Shown here: piece after piece, positions 1,183-12,207 of the stretch
Layout of the letters: each line of letters opens with the position of its first letter
Position numbering within the stretch: the first letter of the stretch is position 1
Source of the DNA: a virus
DNA length: 16,682 nt
Reading direction: 5' to 3' (one strand)
UHGV virus genome: UHGV-0178820
Notes under the pieces: generated by a model
What the model saw: the letters and a program-made list of their open reading frames with translations, nothing else
Told to the model about the DNA's origin: nothing
Database searches by the model: none
Translations under genes and position numbers: made by a program

Positions 1183-1419
1183 ATGATGGTTAGAAATGAA
1201 GTAATGAACAAAGACTGGCACCGCGAGTACATCGTTGCCGCTGTGCACACCAAAGGTTTTACATTGCGTGAACTTTCTGAACGCGCTGGTCTAAAAAAAG
1301 ACTCTTTAAAAAATGCACTGTATCGCTCATGCCCTAAATATGAACGCATCATAGCCGATGCTATTGGTGTGGAACCTGCGGAGATCTGGCCAAGCCGGTA
1401 TGCCAGTAAGGCGGCGTAA
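1183..1419 (+). CDS. ner: Ner-like DNA-binding transcriptional regulator
   Basis: Small ORF immediately upstream of the transposase with TAATG stop/start overlap at 1417-1421. C-terminal ...IIADAIGVEPAEIWPSRY... resembles the Mu Ner C-terminus (recalled). Start at ATG 1183 chosen for the AAGGG SD-like motif 7 nt upstream; ATG 1204 is an alternative. Confidence 0.8.
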   Translation: MMVRNEVMNKDWHREYIVAAVHTKGFTLRELSERAGLKKDSLKNALYRSCPKYERIIADAIGVEPAEIWPSRYASKAA

Positions 1420-3461
1420 TGTTTTATTCAGCCAATGAGCTGGCCGGTCTTCCTGGTTTGCCCGGTACAGTTCAGGGGGTGCGCTGGACGCTCAATCGGA
1501 TCACAGAGACGCACCCGGAATGGAAGCGCAAGCGTGAAGGCACCAAAGCATTCGAGTATCACATCGACTGCCTGCCCGCTGAAGCGCAGAAAGTTTTACG
1601 TAAGCGCCTGACCCATCAGGTCCTGGAAGATACGCAACTGCCCGCCGTGGTTGAGCAGAAGGCAGTTAAAAACGTCGCCGTTCGCGATGAACTGGAGGTG
1701 ATGGTCAAATGCCCGGAACTGGCATTACGCGAAGTCCAGGCACTGACTGACAAGCAAAAGGCCATCGCTGATGCGCGGATATTGCTGGCTACTGAAGTGC
1801 ATAAACTGCGCGAATACGCCGGAATGACCAGGAAGGCCGCGTTAAAGCACATCGTTGATGGTGTGCGCATGGGGGCGTTACCTGACCGCATTATCGAAGC
1901 AGCTAATACTGCAAATGCACGTCAGGGAAAGCGAACCGGTGTCAGCACCGGCAGCCTGGATAGCTGGTACTCCAGCTGGGTGATGGCGCGCGGTGATGCC
2001 AATCAGTTACTGGCGTTACTGGCTCCCGGTCATCATAAGGGAACACCGTGGGAGCAGGTCTGGTGGTTGAGCGATTTCTTTATGTTCTATCGCTCATGGA
2101 AGCGCCCGACCGTTGAATATGCGTATCGTGAGTTTTCAGCCTGGTGGCATGAAAAACACGCGAATGATGCGGGAATGCTGGCAGCACTGCCTTCAGTTCA
2201 CGCAGTAAGACGGGTGTTAAGCAACGTCCCGGTGATTGTTAAAGAGCGTTTCCGCTCCACCGGTTCAGCCTGGCGTTCGCTCAATCCCTTTGTGCGGCGC
2301 GACTGGAGCACATTACCGGTTAATGCGGTATGGGTCGGGGATGGTCACTGTATGAAAATGACCGCGTTTAACCCCCTTACCGGCAACATTTTCCGACCTG
2401 AAGTGACGCTGGTTATGGATGCAGGGCAGCGCTTTGTTGTGGGCTGGTCACTGTCCCTGTCGGAGAACGTGATAGCTGTTGCTGATGCGTTGCGTTACGG
2501 CATGGCACAGCACGGGATACCGCTGATTTATTACTCCGATAACGGGGGCGGCGAAAAAAACCGGGTGCTTGATGCCGATATTACCGGGATTCTGCCCCGT
2601 CTGGGTGTGGAACATCACACGGGGATACCAGGTAATCCGCAGGGGCGCGGGGTGATTGAGAGGCTTAACAAGGAAATTCCCCGGGATGTGGCCCTGAGTT
2701 TCCGGACGTACTGCTCAAAAGGAGCAGACAAGGAAACCGTAATGATGCAGCAACGGATTATGCAGTCAGCCATTAAGGCCACCCACAAAGGGAAAGAGCT
2801 GACAAAACGGCAGGTTAAGGCAAGGGATGAAATCCCCACCTTTGAGCAACTGATGGCAGCTATAGAGCTGGAGGTCAGACGCTATAACAACCGGCCACAC
2901 AGCAGCCTTCCTCGCAAAGAGGATGGCGAATATTACAGCCCGGCAGCGTATCGCCGGAAACTGATAAAAGAGCAGAATGTTGAAATTGATTTCCTGTCGC
3001 CGGAAGAACTGCATGAAATGTTCAGGCCGGAAGTGACGCGCAAAACATTTCGCGGGGAAATTCAGTTATTCAACAATATTTATTACTCGTATGAGCTGGC
3101 CGCAGAGCACGGGAATGAAGTCAGGGTCAGTTACGATATTCATGATGCAAACAGTGTCATTGTCCGGCGGGCTGATGGCTCTTATATCTGCGATGCCATC
3201 TGGAACGGTAACAAGGTTGATGCCTTCGCTAAACCAGTTATCGAACAAAAACTGGAGAAACGCGTCAAGGGCCGCATTGCACGGGCCACGCAGAAAATCG
3301 AAGAGGCTAAACGCGAGCTTACCCCGGCTATTACGCAGAAGCCTGAGTTTAATCTGGGATATGGACTGGAACGCCAGGAGAAAAAGGAAAAAGAAGAACT
3401 TTATTTATTCGTGTCTGACCGTGAGCGCAATTTAAAGAAAAACGGCACAAATAATCGTTAA
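1419..3461 (+). CDS. A: DDE transposase, MuA-like (680 aa)
   Basis: Size and position as Mu A; candidate DDE catalytic motifs VWVGDGH, YYSDNGGGE and a downstream acidic region; basic C-terminal tail; N-terminal LPGLPGT..GV motif typical of the MuA/repressor DNA-binding domain. Confidence 0.9.
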   Translation: MFYSANELAGLPGLPGTVQGVRWTLNRITETHPEWKRKREGTKAFEYHIDCLPAEAQKVLRKRLTHQVLEDTQLPAVVEQKAVKNVAVRDELEVMVKCPELALREVQALTDKQKAIADARILLATEVHKLREYAGMTRKAALKHIVDGVRMGALPDRIIEAANTANARQGKRTGVSTGSLDSWYSSWVMARGDANQLLALLAPGHHKGTPWEQVWWLSDFFMFYRSWKRPTVEYAYREFSAWWHEKHANDAGMLAALPSVHAVRRVLSNVPVIVKERFRSTGSAWRSLNPFVRRDWSTLPVNAVWVGDGHCMKMTAFNPLTGNIFRPEVTLVMDAGQRFVVGWSLSLSENVIAVADALRYGMAQHGIPLIYYSDNGGGEKNRVLDADITGILPRLGVEHHTGIPGNPQGRGVIERLNKEIPRDVALSFRTYCSKGADKETVMMQQRIMQSAIKATHKGKELTKRQVKARDEIPTFEQLMAAIELEVRRYNNRPHSSLPRKEDGEYYSPAAYRRKLIKEQNVEIDFLSPEELHEMFRPEVTRKTFRGEIQLFNNIYYSYELAAEHGNEVRVSYDIHDANSVIVRRADGSYICDAIWNGNKVDAFAKPVIEQKLEKRVKGRIARATQKIEEAKRELTPAITQKPEFNLGYGLERQEKKEKEELYLFVSDRERNLKKNGTNNR

Positions 3462-3479: not shown

Positions 3480-4373
3480 ATGAGTTTAATTACGCAATTA
3501 AATGACGTAATGGCCCGTCGCGGCTTTACGCAGACCCACGTTGCCCGTGCTATTGGTCGTAGCAGCGCCGTTATTAACCAGTATTTGCAGGGTAAATATC
3601 AGGGCGATATGGCTGATATTGAAGAACGCATTTCTGCCTTTGTGACCCGTGAATGGGAAAAGGAAAACAACCGCCGTATTAAAGTGCGATTTGTCACCAC
3701 CGGCATGGCCGCCAAAGGGCTGGAGGTGCTGACCTACGCCCATCTGGAGTGTGATATTTGCGTGCTGTATGGCGCGGCGGGTCTGGGTAAAAGCATGATT
3801 CTGAGTGAGTATGCTGCCAGAAACCGAGATGTAGTGCTCATTGAAGCCGATATTGGCTATACGGCCAGAAAGTTACTCGATGAACTGTGCCGTCAGCTGG
3901 GTATAAAGGTTCACGGCGATATTCGCGAGAAGATTGATGCCTGTGTGCGTGAACTGCGTGGGTCAGGTCGTCTGCTGATGGTGGATGAGGCTGAACTGCT
4001 CCCCTATCGTGCACTGGAGGTATTGCGCCGTCTGCATGACAAAGCGGGTATCGGGATTGTCCTGGCGGGTATGCCTCACCTTCTGATTAACCTTAAGGGC
4101 CGTTGTGGTGAGTTCGCTCAATTATACAGCCGCGTGGCGCTGGCGCTTAACCTGGGCGATACGCTGACGCAGGAAGATTTTAACAAGATTGCCACAGACA
4201 TGATGCCGGAAGCGGCAGACCCGGAAATTGGTGAGGCACTTTACACACGTTCGCTGGGCAATGCCCGTCGTCTGTTCAAGCTGGCGCGCGGTGTGTACCG
4301 GATTTGTGATATCAGCGATGCACCGGTCAGTGTGCAGGCCATTGATAAATATTCAGAAATGTTAATTCACTGA
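3480..4373 (+). CDS. B: MuB-like AAA+ ATPase / target DNA activator
   Basis: Immediately downstream of A; N-terminal HTH-like segment (FTQTHVARAIGRSSAVINQYLQG); Walker A GAAGLGKS; Walker B-like LLMVDEAE; about 300 aa as in Mu B. Confidence 0.9.
   Translation: MSLITQLNDVMARRGFTQTHVARAIGRSSAVINQYLQGKYQGDMADIEERISAFVTREWEKENNRRIKVRFVTTGMAAKGLEVLTYAHLECDICVLYGAAGLGKSMILSEYAARNRDVVLIEADIGYTARKLLDELCRQLGIKVHGDIREKIDACVRELRGSGRLLMVDEAELLPYRALEVLRRLHDKAGIGIVLAGMPHLLINLKGRCGEFAQLYSRVALALNLGDTLTQEDFNKIATDMMPEAADPEIGEALYTRSLGNARRLFKLARGVYRICDISDAPVSVQAIDKYSEMLIH
4354..4373. repeat. 20-bp perfect direct repeat, copy 1 (CAGAAATGTTAATTCACTGA), spanning the 3' end and stop codon of B
   Basis: Identical 20-mer recurs at 4727-4746; the two copies bracket the 4387-4719 ORF. 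Confidence 0.95.
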
Positions 4374-4386
4374 GTAAAGGTCAGAT

Positions 4387-4719
4387 ATGGAACAGATTGT
4401 CGTTAAAAAAGAAATTAAAGCACTACGGAATATCGGTCGTAATGGTTGTATTTATTCTAATGAGACCCCTGGTGAAATTATTCCGTTTGTTGATTGCTTT
4501 GTGCCGGGTGAACTGCGCGTTGATTTGTATTCCCGCGAACGGGAAATCAATGGAACCGGAAACACCAGCGATGACTGGGACGTTGATGAATGCTGCGCGC
4601 GATTAATGATTATCCCTTTTGAGCAGAATTTACAGGGATTTCGTCGGGCTTATCGTCTTGCGCGCATGTGTGCCCGTCTTCCCCGTTATCAGCCACGACT
4701 TGCGTTTGCACTCAGATAA
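4387..4719 (+). CDS. Hypothetical protein (110 aa) on a repeat-flanked cassette; Arg-rich C-terminal tail
   Basis: ORF with AAGG 7-8 nt upstream; bracketed by the 20-bp direct repeat; visibly more AT-rich than the flanking B gene. No family recognised. Confidence 0.6.
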   Translation: MEQIVVKKEIKALRNIGRNGCIYSNETPGEIIPFVDCFVPGELRVDLYSREREINGTGNTSDDWDVDECCARLMIIPFEQNLQGFRRAYRLARMCARLPRYQPRLAFALR

Positions 4720-4726
4720 TGCAGCG

Positions 4727-4746
4727 CAGAAATGTTAATTCACTGA
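4727..4746. repeat. 20-bp perfect direct repeat, copy 2 (CAGAAATGTTAATTCACTGA)
   Basis: Exact copy of 4354-4373, located 8 nt after the stop of the 4387-4719 ORF. Confidence 0.95.
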
Positions 4747-4760
4747 TGGAGAACAAGACG

Positions 4761-4985
4761 ATGGACAAGCAGACCATTAACGCCGTCCGTTCCCGTGCCC
4801 GTGTGGCCATCCACACCACTGGCGGTCGTGTAACGGGGCAGCATCACCGTTTACCTGTGGTTTATGCCTGCCCGCCCGTGGGTGGTCCTGTATGGCCGGT
4901 AACGGAAATCATCCAGACATTCAGCGGCCTGCGCCGCGTGGTTAAAACGTCCTGTATCGACGGCTGCACCGTCGTATGGCAATGA
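4761..4985 (+). CDS. Hypothetical small protein (about 74 aa; Cys-containing)
   Basis: ORF in the 4668-4985 frame; ATG 4761 has GGAG 9 nt upstream; ATG 4746, the first ATG after the repeat, is an alternative start. No family recognised. Confidence 0.5.
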   Translation: MDKQTINAVRSRARVAIHTTGGRVTGQHHRLPVVYACPPVGGPVWPVTEIIQTFSGLRRVVKTSCIDGCTVVWQ

Positions 4986-4997
4986 GAGGAAATCAGA

Positions 4998-5213
4998 ATG
5001 GCGGTTAAGTTAGAAGTGATTATCTATACCGATGAAAAAGGCGCGACTTTAACCCAGATTACAGGGAGTTATTCGAAGGACGGCACTTCCGAAAGGGAGT
5101 TTCAGGTGGCAACAGGATTACATGATGTTATCAAGGAAGCGCTCAGAAATGACTATAACGGCGTGAATCTTTTTTCTGAAAACGTTGCGCCTCGCGCACA
5201 TAACACAAATTAA
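4998..5213 (+). CDS. Hypothetical small protein (71 aa)
   Basis: ORF with AGAGGA SD-like motif 8 nt upstream; co-oriented and tightly spaced within the early operon. Confidence 0.55.
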   Translation: MAVKLEVIIYTDEKGATLTQITGSYSKDGTSEREFQVATGLHDVIKEALRNDYNGVNLFSENVAPRAHNTN

Positions 5214-5242
5214 TCTGTAAATATCACTGAGGTAATTTAATT

Positions 5243-5887
5243 ATGACGACTGAAAATAAAGTTAAGCAATACACGAAAACTCAAGCGCCTGAAGGTTACT
5301 GGGTGGATGCCCGTGGCGTAATGACACCTGAAAGCCTTATCAAAGATATTGACCGCGACCGCGAGCAGCTGGTCGGTGAGCTTGTGGAGATGGTGATTGC
5401 TGCCTCCGCCTCACTGCGGGAACTGAAACTGCGTGCGTTTGGTGATATCCAGGCATTTATTGACCTGTCGGCGGAGAAATACGGCGCTGTGAAAGGCGGC
5501 AAAAAAGGCAATATCACGCTTTACAGCTTTGACGGACGCTACAAGATTCAGCGCGCCATGCAGGACCGTATCGCGTTTGATGAGCGCATCCAGACCGCGA
5601 AATCGCTGATTGATGATTGCCTGGCTGACTGGACGGAAGGCGCACGACCTGAAATTAAAGCCATCATCAGTGAGGCATTCAGCACGGACAAGGAAGGCAA
5701 CATCAACACCGGGCGCGTTCTGGCCCTGCGTCGCCTGGAAATTGAGGACGAACGCTGGAATAACGCTATGACGCTGATTGGTGAAGCCGTCCAGGTGATT
5801 GGCAGCAAGAGCTATATTCGTGTGTATGAGCGCGTTGGTGATTCTGATGAATACCGCGCAATCCCGCTTGATATTGCAGGGGTTTAA
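5243..5887 (+). CDS. Conserved Mu-like phage early protein, DUF3164-like (214 aa)
   Basis: ORF with GAGGT 9 nt upstream; size and early-region position match proteins recalled as DUF3164 in Mu-like prophages. Assignment is from memory and needs a profile search. Confidence 0.6.
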   Translation: MTTENKVKQYTKTQAPEGYWVDARGVMTPESLIKDIDRDREQLVGELVEMVIAASASLRELKLRAFGDIQAFIDLSAEKYGAVKGGKKGNITLYSFDGRYKIQRAMQDRIAFDERIQTAKSLIDDCLADWTEGARPEIKAIISEAFSTDKEGNINTGRVLALRRLEIEDERWNNAMTLIGEAVQVIGSKSYIRVYERVGDSDEYRAIPLDIAGV

Positions 5888-5888
5888 C

Positions 5889-6122
5889 ATGCATCAGGAT
5901 ATAAAAGAGTACAGGGCCGGAAATAGTTGCGCGGCGTATTCGCTGGGCGCGTCCAGAGCAGAACAACGCGGCGATTATGACGAGGCAGAAAAACTGTGGC
6001 GCAAGGCAGCGCAAAGCCCGTGTAGCACCCTGCGCCGCATCTGGGCTGAACACCGGGCACAGTTCTGTGCCAATGCTCACCTGAAAGGATGGAGGCCGCA
6101 TCATGAACGCGAAGAACTTTAA
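5889..6122 (+). CDS. Small protein, possibly ANR-family regulator-like (77 aa)
   Basis: ATG at 5889 two nt after the stop of the preceding gene; GGGG SD-like motif upstream. Family call is a weak recollection. Confidence 0.5.
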   Translation: MHQDIKEYRAGNSCAAYSLGASRAEQRGDYDEAEKLWRKAAQSPCSTLRRIWAEHRAQFCANAHLKGWRPHHEREEL

Positions 6123-6294
6123 TCAGCTATATCCGGTGGGGACTCGTTTTACACATACCGACAGCGCAGTGTTTGGTTGTGGTCGTGTGGTGAAAACTGT
6201 TGCGCCAGCCAGAGATTTTAAATGTGGTTGTGTGGTTGAAATTAATGTCGAGCCTTATTTCGTAAAAGTCGAAACACTGAAAGCACCGCATTAA
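6103..6294 (+). CDS. Hypothetical small protein (63 aa)
   Basis: GGAGG 7 nt upstream of ATG 6103; overlaps the 3' end of the previous gene by 20 nt in another frame. Confidence 0.55.
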   Translation: MNAKNFNQLYPVGTRFTHTDSAVFGCGRVVKTVAPARDFKCGCVVEINVEPYFVKVETLKAPH

Positions 6295-6323
6295 TTTAAT
6301 TCGTTTTTAATTGTTATTTAAAA

Positions 6324-6357
6324 CAGGCGTAAACCCGCCGGGGCTGGCTTACGCCTG
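6324..6357 (-). terminator. Hairpin (9-bp stem CAGGCGTAA / TTACGCCTG) acting as a probable intrinsic terminator for the leftward 6435-6653 gene
   Basis: Perfect 9-bp inverted repeat with a GC-rich 16-nt loop that may pair internally; on the minus strand it is followed by a T-rich tract (complement of 6300-6323). It lies between convergent gene ends. Confidence 0.55.
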
Positions 6358-6434
6358 AATCTGAGGAAGTTTATTTATGAATATCGCTAAGCAAAAAAAA
6401 TTCGCCCGCGAAATTAATCTGACAATCGTTTGTT

Positions 6435-6653
6435 TTAATCGTCTTGCGACCAGTTCTCAATCGACAGCAGATGTTCATCCAGCGCCGCAGCCAGAACGAA
6501 CTCCCCACGTTCCTGAAGGCCGTGCTGGAAGTTGCGTAATTCAGAATCCAGGGCGCTGAGGTTCAGACAGCCATTTTCTGAAAGCTGTTTAACCAGAAAG
6601 CTCCACGCAGCTTTGTTAGCAGTAATTGCTGCCGCAATTTCATCATCAATCAT
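6435..6653 (-). CDS. Hypothetical 72-aa protein, transcribed opposite to the surrounding early operon (moron-like); acidic C-terminal tail
   Basis: Minus-strand ORF with consensus SD AGGAG 7 nt upstream of its ATG (complement of 6661-6665) and a hairpin plus T-tract downstream. Balanced, helix-like composition, unlike the overlapping plus-strand ORF. Confidence 0.65.
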   Translation of the reverse strand: MIDDEIAAAITANKAAWSFLVKQLSENGCLNLSALDSELRNFQHGLQERGEFVLAAALDEHLLSIENWSQDD

Positions 6654-6741
6654 TTTTTAACTCCTGATTGGGTATGTTGGGGCAGCGATTATGACAAGTG
6701 TTTTGTGGTTATAAGTTGATCAAAAACAATGAGTTACAACC

Positions 6742-7452
6742 ATGAAAGATAAATACATTGCCAAAATCAAAAAGCTGTTACGCCTTGCCAGAGGAACATC
6801 AAGCCCGGAAGAAGCCGCTAACGCTATTGCAAAAGCCCAGGCTTATATGCGCCAGCATGGCATCAGCGAAAACGACGCGGAATTGTTCGACATTCAGGAA
6901 GCTGCCAGCGCGGGTGCGCCGAGTGATGCCAGTACGCCGCCGCGTTATATGCACATCCTGTGTGACCTGGTCTGTAAAGCCTTCGGTGTCGAGTGTTACA
7001 TCTCCGGCGAATACAGGGCTTCTGGTTCACTCAAACGTTACGTGCGTTTTTATGGCTCTGACAGCCGCCCGGAAATCGCGGCCTACGCGTTTGATGTGCT
7101 TTCCCGTCAGATGATGACAGAGCGCAAGAAATATCAGGATAAACACTGCAAACGTTGCGGCCCGTCCACGCGGGTGGCCCGTGGCGACCAGTTCTGCGAA
7201 GGCTGGGTCTTTGGTGCCCGTGATGTCATTGCGGTGTATGACGTCTCCCCGGAAGAAAAAAGCCGCCTTGAGCTTTACAGAAAGAACCTGCACAGCACTA
7301 AGGGACTGCGCGACGGGGATATGCGCACGGCTAAAGCGTGTCGTGGTGCAGAGTTTGCCGCTACTGCCGGTTTTATCGCCGGGAAAAACGCCAGGCTGCA
7401 TCAGGGGGTTAATGGTCAGAGCAACAGACCGCTTGCACTGGGGAGGGTGTAA
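6742..7452 (+). CDS. DUF2786-like protein with Cys-rich C-terminal region (236 aa)
   Basis: N-terminal KIKKLLRLA......EEAANAIAKAQAYM matches the recalled DUF2786 signature; C-terminal CxxC-containing segment (CKRCGPS...FCEGW). Confidence 0.6.
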   Translation: MKDKYIAKIKKLLRLARGTSSPEEAANAIAKAQAYMRQHGISENDAELFDIQEAASAGAPSDASTPPRYMHILCDLVCKAFGVECYISGEYRASGSLKRYVRFYGSDSRPEIAAYAFDVLSRQMMTERKKYQDKHCKRCGPSTRVARGDQFCEGWVFGARDVIAVYDVSPEEKSRLELYRKNLHSTKGLRDGDMRTAKACRGAEFAATAGFIAGKNARLHQGVNGQSNRPLALGRV

Positions 7453-7454
7453 CG

Positions 7455-7682
7455 ATGGCTTTTAAACTTCTTAGCGTTACCGAAGCAATATACCAGCCTC
7501 CTGGAGAACGCCACGAATACAGGATGAATGACGGTAGCGCGGCGGTTGAGTTCCCCGGATATCCGGGTGCTTCCCGGTGGCGGTTCTATGACAGTGCAGG
7601 ACGCCGGATTATTAAAAGAACCGTGCACAACGCCATGAAAGCCGCTGTAGAACGTCACAAAAGAAGGTTTAACTGCAAATGA
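7455..7682 (+). CDS. Hypothetical small protein (75 aa)
   Basis: GGGAGGG SD 7 nt upstream; starts 3 nt after the previous stop. Confidence 0.55.
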   Translation: MAFKLLSVTEAIYQPPGERHEYRMNDGSAAVEFPGYPGASRWRFYDSAGRRIIKRTVHNAMKAAVERHKRRFNCK

Positions 7683-7903
7683 ATATTGAATTTTATGACT
7701 ATGGGGTTACCGCAAAAATCATTGTCACCTGCTGGTTCTGGGAGTTCCGTCGCTATTGCCGGGTTGTGGATGCGGCGCTGTTTGTAGCCCCTGAAGTGCA
7801 CCATGAGAGCGGTGGCGGTCTTTTAATGAGAACTGTTATCACCGGCAAGACTGTCCCGATGTTACGGGCGTTTAAAGTAGCAAAACATGAGGCGGCGCAG
7901 TGA
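7679..7903 (+). CDS. Hypothetical small protein (74 aa)
   Basis: ATGA start/stop overlap with the upstream gene (7679-7682), suggesting translational coupling. Confidence 0.5.
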   Translation: MNIEFYDYGVTAKIIVTCWFWEFRRYCRVVDAALFVAPEVHHESGGGLLMRTVITGKTVPMLRAFKVAKHEAAQ

Positions 7904-8064
7904 ACCAGCAAACCAGAATAAGCGATAAGAGCCTGACCAGACTGATTGCCGATGCGGACAAGGTGCTGGAGCGGAACACTCCCGTTGCCGATGAGGAATG
8001 GTGGCAGGATTTCCGGGCCGCAATGCTGGAACTTCAGGAACGTCGTCGGGAGGAATTGAAGTGA
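7900..8064 (+). CDS. Possible small ORF (54 aa, GTG start), not in the supplied ORF track
   Basis: GTG 7900 overlaps the upstream stop (GTGA) with GAGG 8 nt upstream; open to TGA 8062-8064. Sequence VNQQTRISDKSLTRLIADADKVLERNTPVADEEWWQDFRAAMLELQERRREELK translated by hand. Confidence 0.35.
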   Translation: MNQQTRISDKSLTRLIADADKVLERNTPVADEEWWQDFRAAMLELQERRREELK

Positions 8065-8153
8065 GTGAATTAAAGTGTCGAATTAATGGCAATCAGATAG
8101 AACCGTGTGCGGTACTGGCAAAAGCACCCGAATATGGAAAAAGGAGGCAACCA

Positions 8154-8651
8154 GTGAGCGAGATTAACTATCAGGCACTGCGTGAGGTGGCAGTGGCCGC
8201 GAAGGGGGATACGACGTGGCAGAACCTACAGGCTTTTCATGCTGCTGCTACGCCGGAGGTTGTGCAGGCGTTGCTGGATGAAAACGAAAGACTGTGTCGC
8301 GATCTGATAGCTCGTAATGGTGAGATTGAAGGGCTTCTGGAGTGGGCAGAAGAACTGGAGGCACGGGAGGTAGCTTTGCCAGTAGCGTCATTCATTGTTG
8401 AAGATGGATGCATGCGTGTTGATGGGTTCAGTAAGTATGTAGGTCACTCGCTACCTGATGGAATGCATGAGCTTTATGCTGCCCCGCCAGCATCGGTAGT
8501 ACCGGAAGGACTAGTTAAAGCAGTGCGTTTCTATGAACAGGTAAAGTGTGAGAATCCGCCAGTCGAAACCGGAGCATGGAAAGACGCGGTTGACTGGGTG
8601 CTCAACGAGGCTTGTCAGGCTGTAAATATTGACGCCAAAGGAGGTGCGTAA
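8154..8651 (+). CDS. Ead/Ea22-like family protein (about 165 aa from GTG 8154; alternative GTG start at 8061)
   Basis: Segment (M/V)SEINYQALREVAVAAKGD...ATPEVVQALLDENERL matches the recalled hallmark N-terminus of lambdoid-phage Ead/Ea22-like proteins. AAAGGAGG SD 6 nt upstream of GTG 8154; GTG 8061 also has GGGAGG upstream and would add 31 residues. Confidence 0.6.
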   Translation: MSEINYQALREVAVAAKGDTTWQNLQAFHAAATPEVVQALLDENERLCRDLIARNGEIEGLLEWAEELEAREVALPVASFIVEDGCMRVDGFSKYVGHSLPDGMHELYAAPPASVVPEGLVKAVRFYEQVKCENPPVETGAWKDAVDWVLNEACQAVNIDAKGGA

Positions 8652-8821
8652 TGCGTGCCGCGTTTATCGGTTTATTACCGTACCCGACTCGTTTTTGGGC
8701 TTCTGCGCTAATTGCAAAGCCGCATACCCTTATGGCTGACAGCATCATCCCGGCACCAAAGCGCCATACCGGTATTGCAGCTGCACGACGCGAAGCAAAG
8801 AAACGCAGGAGAGCAAAATGA
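8651..8821 (+). CDS. Possible small protein (56 aa; hydrophobic N-terminus, basic C-terminus), not in the ORF track
   Basis: TAATG overlap with the Ea22-like gene stop; AAAGGAGG SD 6 nt upstream; hand translation MRAAFIGLLPYPTRFWASALIAKPHTLMADSIIPAPKRHTGIAAARREAKKRRRAK. Confidence 0.4.
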   Translation: MRAAFIGLLPYPTRFWASALIAKPHTLMADSIIPAPKRHTGIAAARREAKKRRRAK

Positions 8822-9003
8822 TGAAAAACCGTAAGGCAAAAATTCTGTTAGCTCGCAGAAACGGCTTTGATGTCTGGCGGTGGGTGAGGATTAGTAACAG
8901 GCGAGTAAGGTTGACGGGGTGTTGCGGGGTGATGGGGCACAGTTGTTGCAAAAAGCCCAGCGCGGCGCAAAACCGCTGGAAGAATCACACTAACGCAAAG
9001 TGA
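8818..9003 (+). CDS. Possible small basic Cys-rich protein (61 aa; CC...CC motif)
   Basis: ATGA overlap with the upstream small ORF; AGGAGA SD 6 nt upstream; very basic with CCGVMGHSCC. Confidence 0.4.
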   Translation: MMKNRKAKILLARRNGFDVWRWVRISNRRVRLTGCCGVMGHSCCKKPSAAQNRWKNHTNAK

Positions 9004-9021
9004 TTAAATAATAACCAATAG

Positions 9022-9068
9022 CAGGCCAAAACATACGTTTTGGTCTGCCAAAAGTAGTGTTTTGGTCA
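9022..9068. promoter_or_regulatory. Two tandem palindromic units (GCCAAAAC-ATAC-GTTTTGGTC and GCCAAAAG-TAGTG-TTTTGGTC); candidate operator or RNA structure
   Basis: Each roughly 22-bp unit is itself an inverted repeat (CCAAAA...TTTTGG) and the two are direct repeats of each other; located in the intergenic gap just upstream of the 9071 gene. Confidence 0.5.
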
Positions 9069-9070
9069 TT

Positions 9071-9349
9071 ATGAAGATTGAACAAGTCGGAATGGCAGCT
9101 TTCAGGCAACAGGCTGAAAGCGGTGGCGTGGATGAGTTCGTCGTGCAGCGGTTCGGTGGTGTGTATCACCTCTTCGCTGTGAATCGCCGCGCCGGGGTGT
9201 CCTATTTTCTACAGGAACGCCGTGGCGATTACAAGACGTGGCTGTCTCTTGACCGTGCCGCCGCGTTCCTGTCGGGGATTGGTGTTTCACGTTTTACCGT
9301 GCGTTTTGAGGATAACAAACATGCTGAAAAAGATGATCGGGGCCATTAA
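9071..9349 (+). CDS. Hypothetical protein (about 92 aa) immediately upstream of and overlapping gemA
   Basis: ORF in frame with track ORF 9062-9349; weak RBS; start uncertain (9062 TTG, 9071 ATG or 9092 ATG). Overlaps gemA by 29 nt in a different frame. Confidence 0.45.
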   Translation: MKIEQVGMAAFRQQAESGGVDEFVVQRFGGVYHLFAVNRRAGVSYFLQERRGDYKTWLSLDRAAAFLSGIGVSRFTVRFEDNKHAEKDDRGH

Positions 9350-9734
9350 AGCCGGTCAGGCATATCTGGGGTGGGATGATGCTCTTTATCGCCAGACACT
9401 GGCCCGCCTGACAGGTAAAACCAGCACCACACGCTGCAACCTCGATGAACTGCGCATCATCCGGGAATACATGCACGAACAGGGATTTCCGCGTAAAGCC
9501 CCCGCCGGTAAAGGTCGCCGCCCCCGTGTGGCAATGAGCAGAAAATCGGTATTATCCAAAATTGAAGCGTTGCTGGCTGATGCCGGTCGTTCCTGGGCAT
9601 ATGCGGAAGGACTGGCATCTCACATGTATAAGCAACATGTGATCGAATGGCTGACAGATGATCAACTGTTCGGGGTGATGGTGGCGCTGACAAAAGACGC
9701 CAGAAAACGAGCCAGAGCAGCACGTAAACAATAA
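9321..9734 (+). CDS. gemA: GemA-like protein (Mu gp16 family, DUF1018)
   Basis: Pattern ...LGWDDALYRQTLARLTGKTSTTRCNLDELRIIREYMHEQGF... matches the recalled GemA signature; GAGGA upstream of ATG 9321; position just before the late activator as in Mu. Confidence 0.75.
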   Translation: MLKKMIGAIKAGQAYLGWDDALYRQTLARLTGKTSTTRCNLDELRIIREYMHEQGFPRKAPAGKGRRPRVAMSRKSVLSKIEALLADAGRSWAYAEGLASHMYKQHVIEWLTDDQLFGVMVALTKDARKRARAARKQ

Positions 9735-9741
9735 AGAATCA

Positions 9742-9766
9742 GCCCCTGCCTTGCAGGGGCTTTTTT
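9742..9766 (+). terminator. Rho-independent terminator after gemA
   Basis: GCCCCTG (9742-9748) / CAGGGGC (9754-9760) stem with 5-nt loop followed by TTTTTT (9761-9766). Confidence 0.8.
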
Positions 9767-9771
9767 GTGGT

Positions 9772-9800
9772 CTGTACAGGCGATCATGTATGGCTATAAT
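9772..9800 (+). promoter_or_regulatory. Candidate sigma70-type promoter for the Mor/C-family gene (-35-like TGTACA, consensus -10 TATAAT at 9795-9800)
   Basis: TATAAT hexamer 30 nt upstream of the ATG with a 4/6 -35 match 17 bp upstream; directly follows the gemA terminator. Confidence 0.5.
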
Positions 9801-9829
9801 AACAGTAAGTTACTACCGGAGACGCCATC

Positions 9830-10297
9830 ATGCAGACCTTCAGTGAAACAGATCTTCGCGATGCGCAGGCACTGCTGCCCGATTCCGTGCAGCAACTGAT
9901 TAGCGTGATTGGCTTCCCCGCCCTGACCCGGTTAATCCGTTCTTTTGGTGGCGTGACGTTAAGCGGTAAAACCGGCGCACACGCAGGACGCACCGGCGGT
10001 GTCCATGCCCTGTTACATGACGTGCTGACCGAAGACGAAATCAACAAACTGATCCGCTTTCTTGGCGGTGCACCGTTTTACATTCCCCGTTGTGATCATG
10101 CTTTACGTGCCCTGCGTAACACCCGTTTTATGGCTGATTTACAGCAGCATGTAAAAGGCGGATGCTCACACCGGCAGGCGCTGGCACTGCTCTGTCCCCG
10201 TTACGGCATTTCAGACCGGTACGCATGGCAACTGATACACCGACGACAAAAACAGACTTCGCTGAAAAGCCCCACCCAGGTGGGGCTTTTTGATTAA
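9830..10297 (+). CDS. Mor/C-family transcriptional activator (middle/late gene activator homologue)
   Basis: C-terminal region FYIPRCDHALRALRN.....GCSHRQALALLCPRYGISDRYAWQLIHR matches the recalled Mu Mor/C pattern (YIPR......R..R, then HTH). Located between gemA and the lysis genes. Confidence 0.75.
   Translation: MQTFSETDLRDAQALLPDSVQQLISVIGFPALTRLIRSFGGVTLSGKTGAHAGRTGGVHALLHDVLTEDEINKLIRFLGGAPFYIPRCDHALRALRNTRFMADLQQHVKGGCSHRQALALLCPRYGISDRYAWQLIHRRQKQTSLKSPTQVGLFD
10268..10291 (+). terminator. Rho-independent terminator overlapping the 3' end of the Mor/C-family gene
   Basis: AGCCCCAC / GTGGGGCT stem followed by TTTTT; the stop codon (10295-10297) lies just after the T-tract, so the hairpin is encoded within the last codons. 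Confidence 0.7.
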
Positions 10298-10324
10298 TGA
10301 GACTCAGAAAAAAGGAGACACGAA

Positions 10325-10612
10325 ATGATGAGTTCTGACACCAATATCGACTACGCAGCACTCGGTGAATATACCGCATTTTCAGACAAGGCCCGGGATG
10401 CAGCCCGTCGCCGACATGCTGAGATGTGTAATTTATCCAGTTATCTGGCGAGACAGGCCCAAAGCCCGGAGTCAGAAACGAATCATAATGAAGTGCTGTC
10501 AGCCGTAAACAGGATGCTGGACGCAGAACGGGAAATGCGTAAAGCCGTGGAAAGAGCTAACCTGCTTGCGCAGGCGTGTTATAAGCCACCATTAAAACTC
10601 GCTTCCCTTTAA
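10325..10612 (+). CDS. Hypothetical protein (95 aa) between the activator and the lysis cassette
   Basis: Consensus SD AAGGAG 9 nt upstream of ATG 10325; helical, charged composition; no family recognised. Confidence 0.6.
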   Translation: MMSSDTNIDYAALGEYTAFSDKARDAARRRHAEMCNLSSYLARQAQSPESETNHNEVLSAVNRMLDAEREMRKAVERANLLAQACYKPPLKLASL

Positions 10613-10630
10613 CCCATCCAGCTAATCAAC

Positions 10631-10659
10631 CTGCCGGGGGTGCTGAACACCCCCAGCAG
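10631..10659 (+). promoter_or_regulatory. GC-rich hairpin/palindrome (GGGGGTG-CTGAA-CACCCCC, extendable to about 11 bp with one mismatch) in the leader upstream of the lysis cassette
   Basis: Inverted repeat without a following T-tract, within a 187-bp intergenic region that has no convincing -35/-10 pair; candidate activator-dependent late promoter element or RNA structure. Confidence 0.4.
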
Positions 10660-10799
10660 TACCCACCACACCAGACCGTTTACCCTGTCCACTCAGACCA
10701 CAAGGCACCTTAAGGGATAGCGCCCTGCAAAAGGCTTATGTGCCTTTGACAGGGTGTTATTTACGGGCCGTCAGTGGCTCAGATTTACAGGAGAAACTC

Positions 10800-11213: not shown

Positions 11214-11499
11214 TTTTGCCGGTATTGTGAACGTCTGGCTGTGTCTCGCCATTGTTCTGGGGTTGTTTGTGTATCGCCGCCACGGTGCGGCGCATAAGCC
11301 GATGATTACCTGGCTGGCGTACTGGCTGATGCTCGGCTACATCATCATCCCGTTCCGCTGGCTGTCCGGTACATACACGCACTCCAGCTGGCTGGTTGTG
11401 GCGCTGAATCTGGTGTTCTGTGCGCTTATCGTGTGGGCGCACGGGAATTTGTCAAAAATCCTTTCGTTACTGAGGCATCCACATGAAATCAAAAGATGA
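11203..11499 (+). CDS. Small membrane protein (98 aa; possible second holin or antiholin)
   Basis: GGAGGGGG upstream of ATG 11203; hydrophobic helices (IVNVWLCLAIVLGLFVY, WLMLGYIIIPF, WLVVALNLVFCALIVW); overlaps neighbours at both ends. Confidence 0.5.
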   Translation: MESSFAGIVNVWLCLAIVLGLFVYRRHGAAHKPMITWLAYWLMLGYIIIPFRWLSGTYTHSSWLVVALNLVFCALIVWAHGNLSKILSLLRHPHEIKR

Positions 11500-12028
11500 C
11501 ATTTTTGATGAAGTCCTGGGCAAAGAAGGCGGTTACGTCAATCACCCGGATGATAAGGGCGGCCCGACCAAATGGGGCATTACGGAAAAAATCGCCCGTG
11601 CCCACGGATACCGTGGCGATATGCGCGATTTAACCCGCGAACAGGCGCTGGACATCCTTGAAGCCGATTACTGGTACGGTCCGCGATTCGACCAGGTAGC
11701 AGCGTTATCCCCTGATATTGCCGCAGAGCTGTGTGATACCGGTGTGAATATGGGGCCATCCGTGGCGTCCAGAATGCTTCAGCGCTGGCTGAATGTGTTC
11801 AATCTGCGCGGCAGGCTGTACCCGGATATGGACGCAGACGGACGCATCGGGCCTCGTACCATCAGTGCATTGCGCGCCTTCCTGAATAATCGCGGTCAGG
11901 ACGGTGAACGGGTGATGCTGACGGCCCTGAACTGTACGCAGGGGGACCGCTATCTGGAACTGGCGGAGAAACGCGAGGCTAACGAATCGTTTGTTTATGG
12001 CTGGCTGAAGGAGCGCGTGGCGATATGA
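11483..12028 (+). CDS. Endolysin, glycoside hydrolase family 108-like N-terminal domain with peptidoglycan-binding C-terminal domain
   Basis: N-terminal EGGYVNHPDDKGGPTKWGIT matches the recalled GH108 signature; the C-terminal region resembles PG_binding_3-type domains; position after membrane proteins. Confidence 0.8.
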   Translation: MKSKDDIFDEVLGKEGGYVNHPDDKGGPTKWGITEKIARAHGYRGDMRDLTREQALDILEADYWYGPRFDQVAALSPDIAAELCDTGVNMGPSVASRMLQRWLNVFNLRGRLYPDMDADGRIGPRTISALRAFLNNRGQDGERVMLTALNCTQGDRYLELAEKREANESFVYGWLKERVAI

Positions 12029-12207
12029 CGCGTCAGCACTGGACCCACAGAACGCCACGTAAAGCCGCGCGCTGTGTTCTGGCCCTGTTTCTGGTGATGT
12101 TGCTTCCGGTGAGATGCACAGACATTAACAGAACGGGACAGCTGTTAGACGCGGCGGCGCAGGTCTGCCGGATTATTGACGGCATCCGACAGTGTTCGCA
12201 GAACTGA
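12025..12207 (+). CDS. Small membrane-anchored protein (60 aa), possible spanin-like lysis accessory protein
   Basis: ATGA overlap with the endolysin stop; basic N-terminus, hydrophobic segment CVLALFLVMLLPV, then a segment with 3 Cys. No canonical lipobox. Confidence 0.35.
   Translation: MTRQHWTHRTPRKAARCVLALFLVMLLPVRCTDINRTGQLLDAAAQVCRIIDGIRQCSQN

Follow-up and report, generated by a model that had tools for sequence, protein, structure and literature searches.

The window analysed here is UHGV virus genome UHGV-0178820, a stretch of 16,682 nucleotides that forms the left end of a Mu-like (transposable) Escherichia coli prophage of the type found in E2348/69, and our subject is the region at positions 6742–9003, the distal, cargo-bearing stretch between the Mu-like B gene and gemA/mor. 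Seven genes, termed g1 to g7, lie in this region on the forward strand. The first, g1 (6742..7452), encodes 236 amino acids (aa) and combines DUF2786, an N-terminal helical hairpin, with DUF7168, an alpha/beta domain. It is followed by g2 (7455..7682; 75 aa, basic, pI 10.3), which matches phrog_9400 with an E-value of 4e-40, and by g3 (7679..7903; 74 aa; phrog_1001) and g4 (7900..8064; 54 aa, acidic; phrog_14672). Between g4 and g5 lies the leftover of a phrog_4030 gene, termed gX, whose remnant (8061..8153) is in frame with g5, while g5 itself (8154..8651) is an Ead/Ea22-like gene encoding 165 aa from the GTG at 8154 and 196 aa from 8061. The last two genes are g6 (8651..8821; 56 aa, very basic, pI 12.0; phrog_13831) and g7 (8818..9003; 61 aa, basic, Cys-containing, pI 11.7; phrog_1380). 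Profile searches returned Pfam matches to DUF2786 and DUF7168 for g1 and to Ead_Ea22 for g5, with the rest matching only PHROG families, and the PHROG families of all these genes are listed as of 'unknown function'. GC content is 0.48–0.55 through the region, with no compositional island.

Homologous DNA was gathered from 80 loci and Nei-Gojobori ratios of nonsynonymous to synonymous differences (pN/pS) were calculated for every frame. In the called frames these were 0.14, 0.11, 0.20, 0.14, 0.36, 0.24 and 0.26 for g1 to g7, respectively, and the called frame was either the lowest or within 0.01 of it, with only the wobble-sharing antisense frame scoring equally low. Purifying selection in the called frames (0.11–0.36) therefore demonstrates that all seven open reading frames (ORFs) are real genes. 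An earlier note on this DNA, which we call the original prediction, had described a run of small rightward genes with consensus Shine-Dalgarno (SD) sequences and overlapping stop/start junctions, and for most of the run this holds. Stop and start overlap as ATGA at 7679 (g2/g3), as GTGA at 7900 (g3/g4), again as GTGA where the end of g4 meets the GTG at 8061, as TAATG at 8651 (g5/g6) and as ATGA at 8818 (g6/g7). Strong SDs precede g2, g4, g5 (AGGAGG, 6 nt ahead of the GTG at 8154), g6 (GGAGG, 6 nt) and g7 (AGGAG, 6 nt), and that of g3 is moderate. The description fails at g1, for which no consensus SD was found in the window sequence, and at the g1/g2 junction (TAA-CG-ATG), where the genes are 2 nt apart and do not overlap. 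As far as sequence can tell, these stop/start overlaps, with SDs lying inside the upstream genes, are the anatomy of translational coupling.

For g1, Pfam bears out the DUF2786 domain that had been proposed (PF10979; 49.1 bits, cut-off 23.9; residues 4–43) and adds DUF7168 (PF23771; 102.4 bits, cut-off 25.5; residues 60–187), and the protein also gives a full-length match to phrog_421 (E 7e-70). Using Foldseek against BFVD, its two-domain fold matched at full length many uncharacterised phage proteins, some of them from virulent phages, and a homologue with ~35% identity is located just upstream of GemA/Mor in the Pseudomonas Casadabanvirus JBD24. Since this homologue keeps its place upstream of GemA/Mor and the fold recurs widely, g1 is not Mu-specific cargo. 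The structure search found no informative solved relative of g1, PDB sequence and profile searches gave chance matches only, and our literature searches found DUF2786 in five papers, none of them functional, and DUF7168 in none, while a 2026 paper in which the Sakai Mu-like prophage Sp18 is named proved to be unrelated. The 'CxxC-rich C-terminus' previously ascribed to g1 amounts to one poorly conserved CxxC, C136/C139, with Cys at these positions in 20/64 and 24/64 homologues, respectively; the sole widely kept Cys is C152 (56/64). We also considered whether g1 could be a substitute for Gam, and this was ruled out because JBD24 encodes both Gam and a DUF2786/DUF7168 gene.

The g5 product is Ea22-like, as had been proposed from its N-terminus. 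It matches PF13935 (Ead_Ea22) at 47.8 bits, above the cut-off of 27 (E 2.8e-12; model positions 1–104 of 139), and BLASTP aligns residues 1–61 with lambda Ea22 at 44% identity (27/61; E 2e-10). The Pfam match begins exactly at the GTG codon at 8154, and lambda Ea22 also starts with GTG (VSEINSQALRE), with g5 likewise having GTG and (V/M)SEIN, which together identify 8154 as the native g5 start. Beyond residue 61 no similarity to lambda Ea22 was found using BLASTP, the C-terminal ~100 residues being unrelated, and PDB sequence and profile searches with g5 gave chance matches only, with no hit to the lambda-Ea22-type C-terminal domain, which has been solved by nuclear magnetic resonance (NMR). 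In an AlphaFold2 (AF2) model, confident helices cover residues 6–72, with a long helix at 34–72 that has predicted local distance difference test (pLDDT) values of 67–93, and in the C-terminal half pLDDT is <60. These alignments confine homology between g5 and lambda Ea22 to the N-terminal domain plus the beginning of the predicted coiled coil, which agrees with what has been published on the family. Ea22 proteins have been reported to have a three-domain tetrameric architecture (PMC7093339, PMC10834534), with hypervariable C-termini that differ among members (PMC7093339; PMC10834534), and from deletion mutants Ea22 is reported to be prolysogenic in lambda and Shiga toxin (Stx) phages (PMC7093339). 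Family members are reported to end in a '+GE' tripeptide, described as being of unknown significance (PMC7093339); g5 ends not in +GE but in KGGA, encoded by AAAGGAGGTGCGTAATG, which is the conserved junction of the family. The g5 DNA is modular, with its first ~40 nt common to almost all Ea22-like genes, nt 1–350 shared with some relatives and nt 345–490 with others, and the protein alignment shows the same shuffling.

Immediately upstream, the segment at 8061–8153, in frame with g5, records a deletion. Alignment with E2348/69 and two IMG/VR loci (L019 and L023) revealed a 163-bp deletion between ATGGAA repeats, with its scar at ~8131–8140, which is carried only by the window and by locus L020. 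Most of gX has been removed by this event. Intact copies of gX in relatives encode 89 aa, are coupled to g4 through GTGA and run into the start of the Ea22-like gene; in the window the leader and ORF of the Ea22-like gene are preceded by the first ~27 codons of gX, joined to them in frame, and as a result gene callers report both 196-aa and 165-aa products (P0121, P0122). The 5' part of gX matches lambdoid and P7 phages beside ead/eae genes.

The original prediction had taken the Ea22-type gene to be a mosaic joint between phage lineages, and this is borne out by a block at 8636–8988, by a non-Mu contig and by the matches of gX and g4. The block is the sole part of the region matched in phages by megablast, at 78–92% identity, and the matches include Uetakevirus phiV10, many Stx1/Stx2 phages, the P1-like RCS47/P1, other phages and IMG/VR contigs. 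It starts at the g6 SD, in the final 15 nt of the Ea22-like gene, and does so in every annotated match, and in 37/47 g6 loci (9/12 Mu-like and 28/35 others) the g6 start coincides with the end of an Ea22-family ORF. Likewise, the non-Mu contig (L079) carries g5 together with g6 at 96% identity, flanked by DUF1064, HNH, DUF551 and P22 NinX. For g4, the 3' part is 89% identical to DNA that closes a 121-aa gene in Yersinia phage vB_YpM_41, and g4 also corresponds to the C-terminal 51 aa of phrog_7520. Breakpoints in homology recur at 8636–8638 (the g6 SD), 8820 (the g7 start), 8841–8852 and 8984–8988. That the mosaic joint spans ~7924 to 8988 is well supported by these comparisons. Within L079 (1660–2158), the 96%-identical Ea22-like gene is itself broken into overlapping ORFs of 82 aa and 111 aa, through either a frameshift or an assembly error.

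Further analysis of the junction between the Ea22-like gene and g6 (8636–8653) showed that the conserved C-terminal K-G-(G)-E/A codons of Ea22 read AAAGGAGGTGAGTAATG, also written AAAGGAGGTGAG, and that within those codons lies AAGGAGGTGA, an extended SD serving the g6-type gene that follows with a TAATG overlap. In the window, AAAGGAGG at 8637–8644 forms the K-G-G codons of g5 and is also the putative g6 SD, and at the end of lambda ea22 (L083) AAAGGAGAGTGA has been kept and the downstream ORF lost. The Ea22 '+GE' is most simply explained as a nucleotide-level constraint, the footprint of an SD, or as the relic of one. A wider proposal can be advanced only tentatively, namely that an Ea22-like gene, g6 and g7 form, in that order, a portable and self-contained functional unit that moves among at least four temperate-phage architectures (lambdoid, epsilon15/P22-like, P1-like and Mu-like), in which the SD linkers would serve as recombination handles, g6 would be an obligate coiled-coil partner of the Ea22-like protein, and '+GE' would be the footprint of the AAGGAGGTGA SD, surviving as a relic in lambda.

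Presence and identity of each gene were tabulated using tblastn across ~20 related prophages. Always present were g1, g2, g3, g8 (the gene that follows the region), GemA and Mor, with g2 being 91–100% identical in all relatives and g3 73–99% identical with allelic variation. Beyond g3 the picture is one of turnover: g4 occurs as two allele classes (66–70% and 88–100%), g5 is found in five relatives and another two (L003 and L010) have a different Ea22-like allele, g6 is present in about half, and g7 is missing from few, its two allele classes having ends that are conserved among Mu-like relatives. Between the starts of g3 and g8 there are 1069 to 2426 bp in the relatives and 1392 bp in the window. 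A homologue search with g7 gave 25 clusters, all 'hypothetical' and all from Enterobacteriaceae, with no informative fusions. The comparison shows g1–g3 as conserved lineage genes and g4–g7 as shuffled cargo, with g4 as the first shuffled module; of the seven genes that had been called accessory, the term thus fits g4–g7 as variable cargo and does not fit g1–g3, which occur in all related prophages.

On the right, the variable region is bounded by a forward-strand palindrome or hairpin, CAGACCAAAAC-ATAT-GTTTTGGTCTG, at 9021–9048, after which the backbone resumes ahead of g8 and GemA. Its 11-bp arms (general form CAG(A/G)CCAAAAC-ATAC-GTTTTGGTCTG) are kept in 20/20 relatives whatever the cargo upstream, which falls into three unrelated sequence classes, and there is one compensatory change in E2348/69 (L001) and a G.U-compatible change in the window. 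As RNA it is predicted to fold at -29.1 kcal/mol (z -5.1). A second hairpin, CCAAAA-N6-TTTTGG, lies just before the g8 start, and since the hairpins in 9021–9066 have no T-run they are not canonical terminators. In seven relatives (L011, L012, L014, L015, L018, L020 and L021) the slot before the hairpin holds, with or instead of g7, a ~85-aa protein that has an N-terminal hydrophobic segment and conserved Cys (…HCVVKRNFIKTITHCDDGSAT…CSAGK.G.PSCHEV…) and may be a moron product that is exported or resides in the membrane.

Using consensus scans we located a Pe-like promoter at 1006–1035, upstream of ner, and a single strong intrinsic terminator on the forward strand at 9741–9761, directly after GemA, with a 9-bp GC-rich stem and a T-run (AGCCCCTGC-CTT-GCAGGGGCT followed by TTTTTT). 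These scans found no promoter-like site before g1 and no signal above chance within 6742–9003. After the terminator and ahead of Mor (9741–9800) there is a promoter-like TGTACA-16-TATAAT that fits 10/12 consensus positions, suggesting that the early transcript of this phage does not simply end with Mor as its last gene. In the window, a conserved hairpin at 6325–6358 (CAGGCGTAA...TTACGCCTG) follows a 63-aa gene, and a 358-bp insert (6358–6741) separates it from g1, giving a 447-nt gap before g1; in minimal relatives g1 begins ~20 nt beyond the hairpin. The insert contains a forward 60-aa ORF (6377–6559; SD GAGGAAG) and, overlapping it in antisense, a leftward 72-aa ORF called by PGAP (6435–6653; SD AGGAG), and comparison of coding strands over 6377–6653 gave a weak bias to the forward frame from 22 variable sites only.

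We consider it probable that the seven genes are a cargo-bearing stretch of the early unit, in which the conserved g1–g3 are joined to exchanged 'ea/nin' modules. Transcription would start at the Pe-like promoter and run through A, B, kil, DUF3164, g1–g7, g8 and gemA to stop at 9741–9761, with translation handed from gene to gene through strong SDs and stop/start overlaps. The remnant of gX, g4, g5, g6 and g7 are modules from an 'ea/nin' pool common to lambdoid, P22/epsilon15-like and P1-like coliphages. Their exchange would rely on recombination within short stretches of conserved linker sequence that fall on SD/start and stop/start junctions, namely the opening ~40 nt of Ea22-like genes, the start of g7 and the AAAGGAGGTGAGTAATG junction. 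The products may be non-essential early modulators of the host or of the lysis-lysogeny outcome; the Ea22-like protein would oligomerise through its coiled coil, with the variable C-terminal domain displayed to a partner in the host, and would bias the phage to lysogeny, as has been put forward for lambda and Stx phages, and g6 and g7 would be small basic proteins that travel with it. Several points weigh against this account. Co-transcription from Pe is deduced purely from simple consensus scans, and recombination at the linkers from the positions of the breakpoints. The prolysogenic role is transferred to g5 from lambda and Stx phages, and the transfer is weak because g5 and lambda Ea22 have unrelated C-terminal halves. 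In addition, the 358-bp insert could have brought in a promoter that the scans do not recognise, and PGAP annotates a leftward gene within it.

The last two points bear on the claim in the original prediction of a self-standing operon led by the DUF2786 gene, which would comprise seven accessory genes under their own promoter upstream of that gene, regulated apart from the early operon. The tight coupling of g2–g7 would suit such a unit, and a leftward ORF with a good SD at 6435–6653 in the 447-nt gap would imply divergent promoters in 6654–6741; however, no sigma-70-like site was found in 6654–6741, and over the part that varies the leftward ORF gives no sign of purifying selection (pN/pS 0.96 in its frame, with codon-position counts of 5, 7 and 4 for positions 1, 2 and 3), on data too few to decide the matter. 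Furthermore, in L017, L018 and L020 the gap between the preceding 63-aa gene and g1 is just 89 nt and consists only of the conserved hairpin and an SD, while downstream g8 and GemA follow with no terminator above chance until 9741–9761. We therefore regard a separate operon as improbable, and these predicted signals are best read as placing the seven genes within the early transcription unit rather than in an operon of their own.

The cargo itself could be read otherwise, with g4–g7 and the alternative cargo of relatives forming an anti-defence or superinfection-exclusion hotspot and not serving to tune lysogeny. High turnover between fixed flanks, the early expression that is expected, the Cys-rich ~85-aa protein with an N-terminal hydrophobic segment in the slot of relatives, and the small very basic or acidic proteins, which are typical of inhibitors, would all fit such a hotspot. 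We nevertheless think it rather unlikely, as PADLOC, run on g1–g8, rev72 and DUF3164, gave no credible match (its sole hit was marginal, g2 to E2, E 0.0047, 14.8 bits), NCBIfam returned none for g1–g7, no informative structure match was found, and the only experimental data for the family indicate a lysogeny phenotype (PMC7093339). There is only a very slight chance that 8636–8988 is instead non-coding, with ORFs present by chance in a cis-acting element or small RNA. Its high nucleotide conservation across unrelated phages and its inconsistent annotation (PGAP has none in STEC346, and for Stx2-86 a different 155-aa ORF is called) are compatible with this, but the called frames have pN/pS values of 0.24 and 0.26 versus 0.8–2.4 in the other forward frames, although the wobble-sharing antisense frames score as low (0.25–0.34). 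In addition, g6 indels occur only in multiples of 3, the starts, SDs and ATGA overlap are conserved, and an Rfam scan of the whole window (E <= 1) gave no match in 6742–9070.

Reading the region as part of the early unit, we compared it with known systems. Like the semi-essential region of Mu (kil to gemA), it lies between B and gemA/mor and holds many small genes, and homologues of Kil, GemA and Mor are found in the window; unlike Mu, the window has no Gam and no detected homologues of gp6–gp14, while Mu has no DUF2786/DUF7168 and Ea22-like genes. The original prediction had found neither kil nor gam evident. This was correct for Gam, as PF07352 is absent from the early ORFs and tblastn of Mu Gam against the window gave no match at E < 1, with the Gam of JBD24 readily detected by the same method. 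Kil, however, is present: a 75-aa ORF at 4758–4985, shortly downstream of MuB, gives a full-length match to phrog_2679, 'Kil protein for bacterial septation inhibition' (E 3.2e-35), and a weak tblastn match to Mu Kil (E 0.002), and RefSeq relatives label it 'hypothetical'. Given this homologue, the early repertoire departs less from the canonical one than had been claimed. Casadabanviruses (JBD24/D3112-like) share with the window the DUF2786+DUF7168 gene, at ~35% and just upstream of GemA/Mor, and the order in JBD24 is Gam, DUF2786/DUF7168, an 85-aa ORF, GemA and Mor. JBD24 thus differs in having Gam and in having a single 85-aa ORF between the DUF2786 gene and GemA, an interval that in the E. 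coli lineage holds 1.1–2.4 kb of variable cargo. The possibility that g8 is equivalent to the JBD24 85-aa ORF was rejected, as there is no similarity.

With lambda and Stx Ea22, encoded in the exo-xis region, g5 has in common the GTG start and VSEINxQALRE N-terminus, a long central helix (AF2), a conserved 3' end (AAAGGAG(G)...) that encodes K-G-(G)-E/A, and a hypervariable C-terminal part. It differs in lying in a Mu-like early operon and not the pL exo-xis region, in ending with KGGA, in its dissimilar C-terminal ~100 residues and in being fused to a deletion remnant. The 'ea/nin' modules of lambdoid, P22/epsilon15-like and P1-like phages have the same order of Ea22-like gene, g6 and g7, the same junctions, module boundaries at gene junctions and 78–96% nucleotide identity, with the difference that in the window they are set in a transposable-phage backbone.

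Temperate phages are well known to exchange accessory modules in mosaic fashion, and the locus is an ordinary one: its products belong to existing families and near-identical loci are already so annotated in RefSeq. At least 80% of window positions 4300–10700 is carried by 17 complete E. coli genomes at 94–96% identity, including enteropathogenic E. coli (EPEC) E2348/69, where the labels are 'DUF2786 domain-containing protein', 'ead/Ea22-like family protein' and hypothetical proteins. No close isolated phage was found in the INPHARED set. Our results leave current understanding of phage biology unchanged. They provide a corrected annotation, in which the conserved g1–g3 and g8 are separated from exchangeable cargo, the g5 start and the deletion-fusion are defined, and Kil is present and Gam missing. 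They also show at nucleotide resolution that transposable phages share an accessory-gene pool with lambdoid, P22-like and P1-like phages, and offer a simple reason, lying in the nucleotide sequence, why Ea22 proteins end in K-G-(G)-E, as these codons contain the putative SD of a coupled downstream gene.

Examination of the rest of the left end using Pfam showed Ner, MuA transposase, MuB ATPase, GemA and Mor to be present in Mu-like order. A CI-type repressor lies on the reverse strand at 367–1029, followed by a Ner-like HTH_35 protein (1147–1419), a MuA-type transposase (Mu-transpos_C/HTH_Tnp_Mu_1; 1419–3461) and a MuB-like AAA ATPase (AAA_22; 3480–4373). The Kil homologue described above is on the forward strand and is followed by DUF3164 (5243–5887), and beyond the region lie GemA (9321–9734) and Mor (9830–10297).

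Some of the small genes are missing from existing annotations. In RefSeq E2348/69 (NC_011601.1; L001 3282–3509) a full-length g2 homologue with 96% identity (tblastn) falls in an unannotated gap between the DUF2786 gene and the next coding sequence, and in STEC346 (L003) the g6 and g7 homologues are likewise without annotation. Finally, the 49-kb Yersinia pestis phages vB_YpM_39/41/44 (L082) match the window in two patches, at 82.7% over 11492–12029 and at 88–89% over the 3' part of g4 (7924–8065), and this similarity indicates further mosaic links beyond E. coli.

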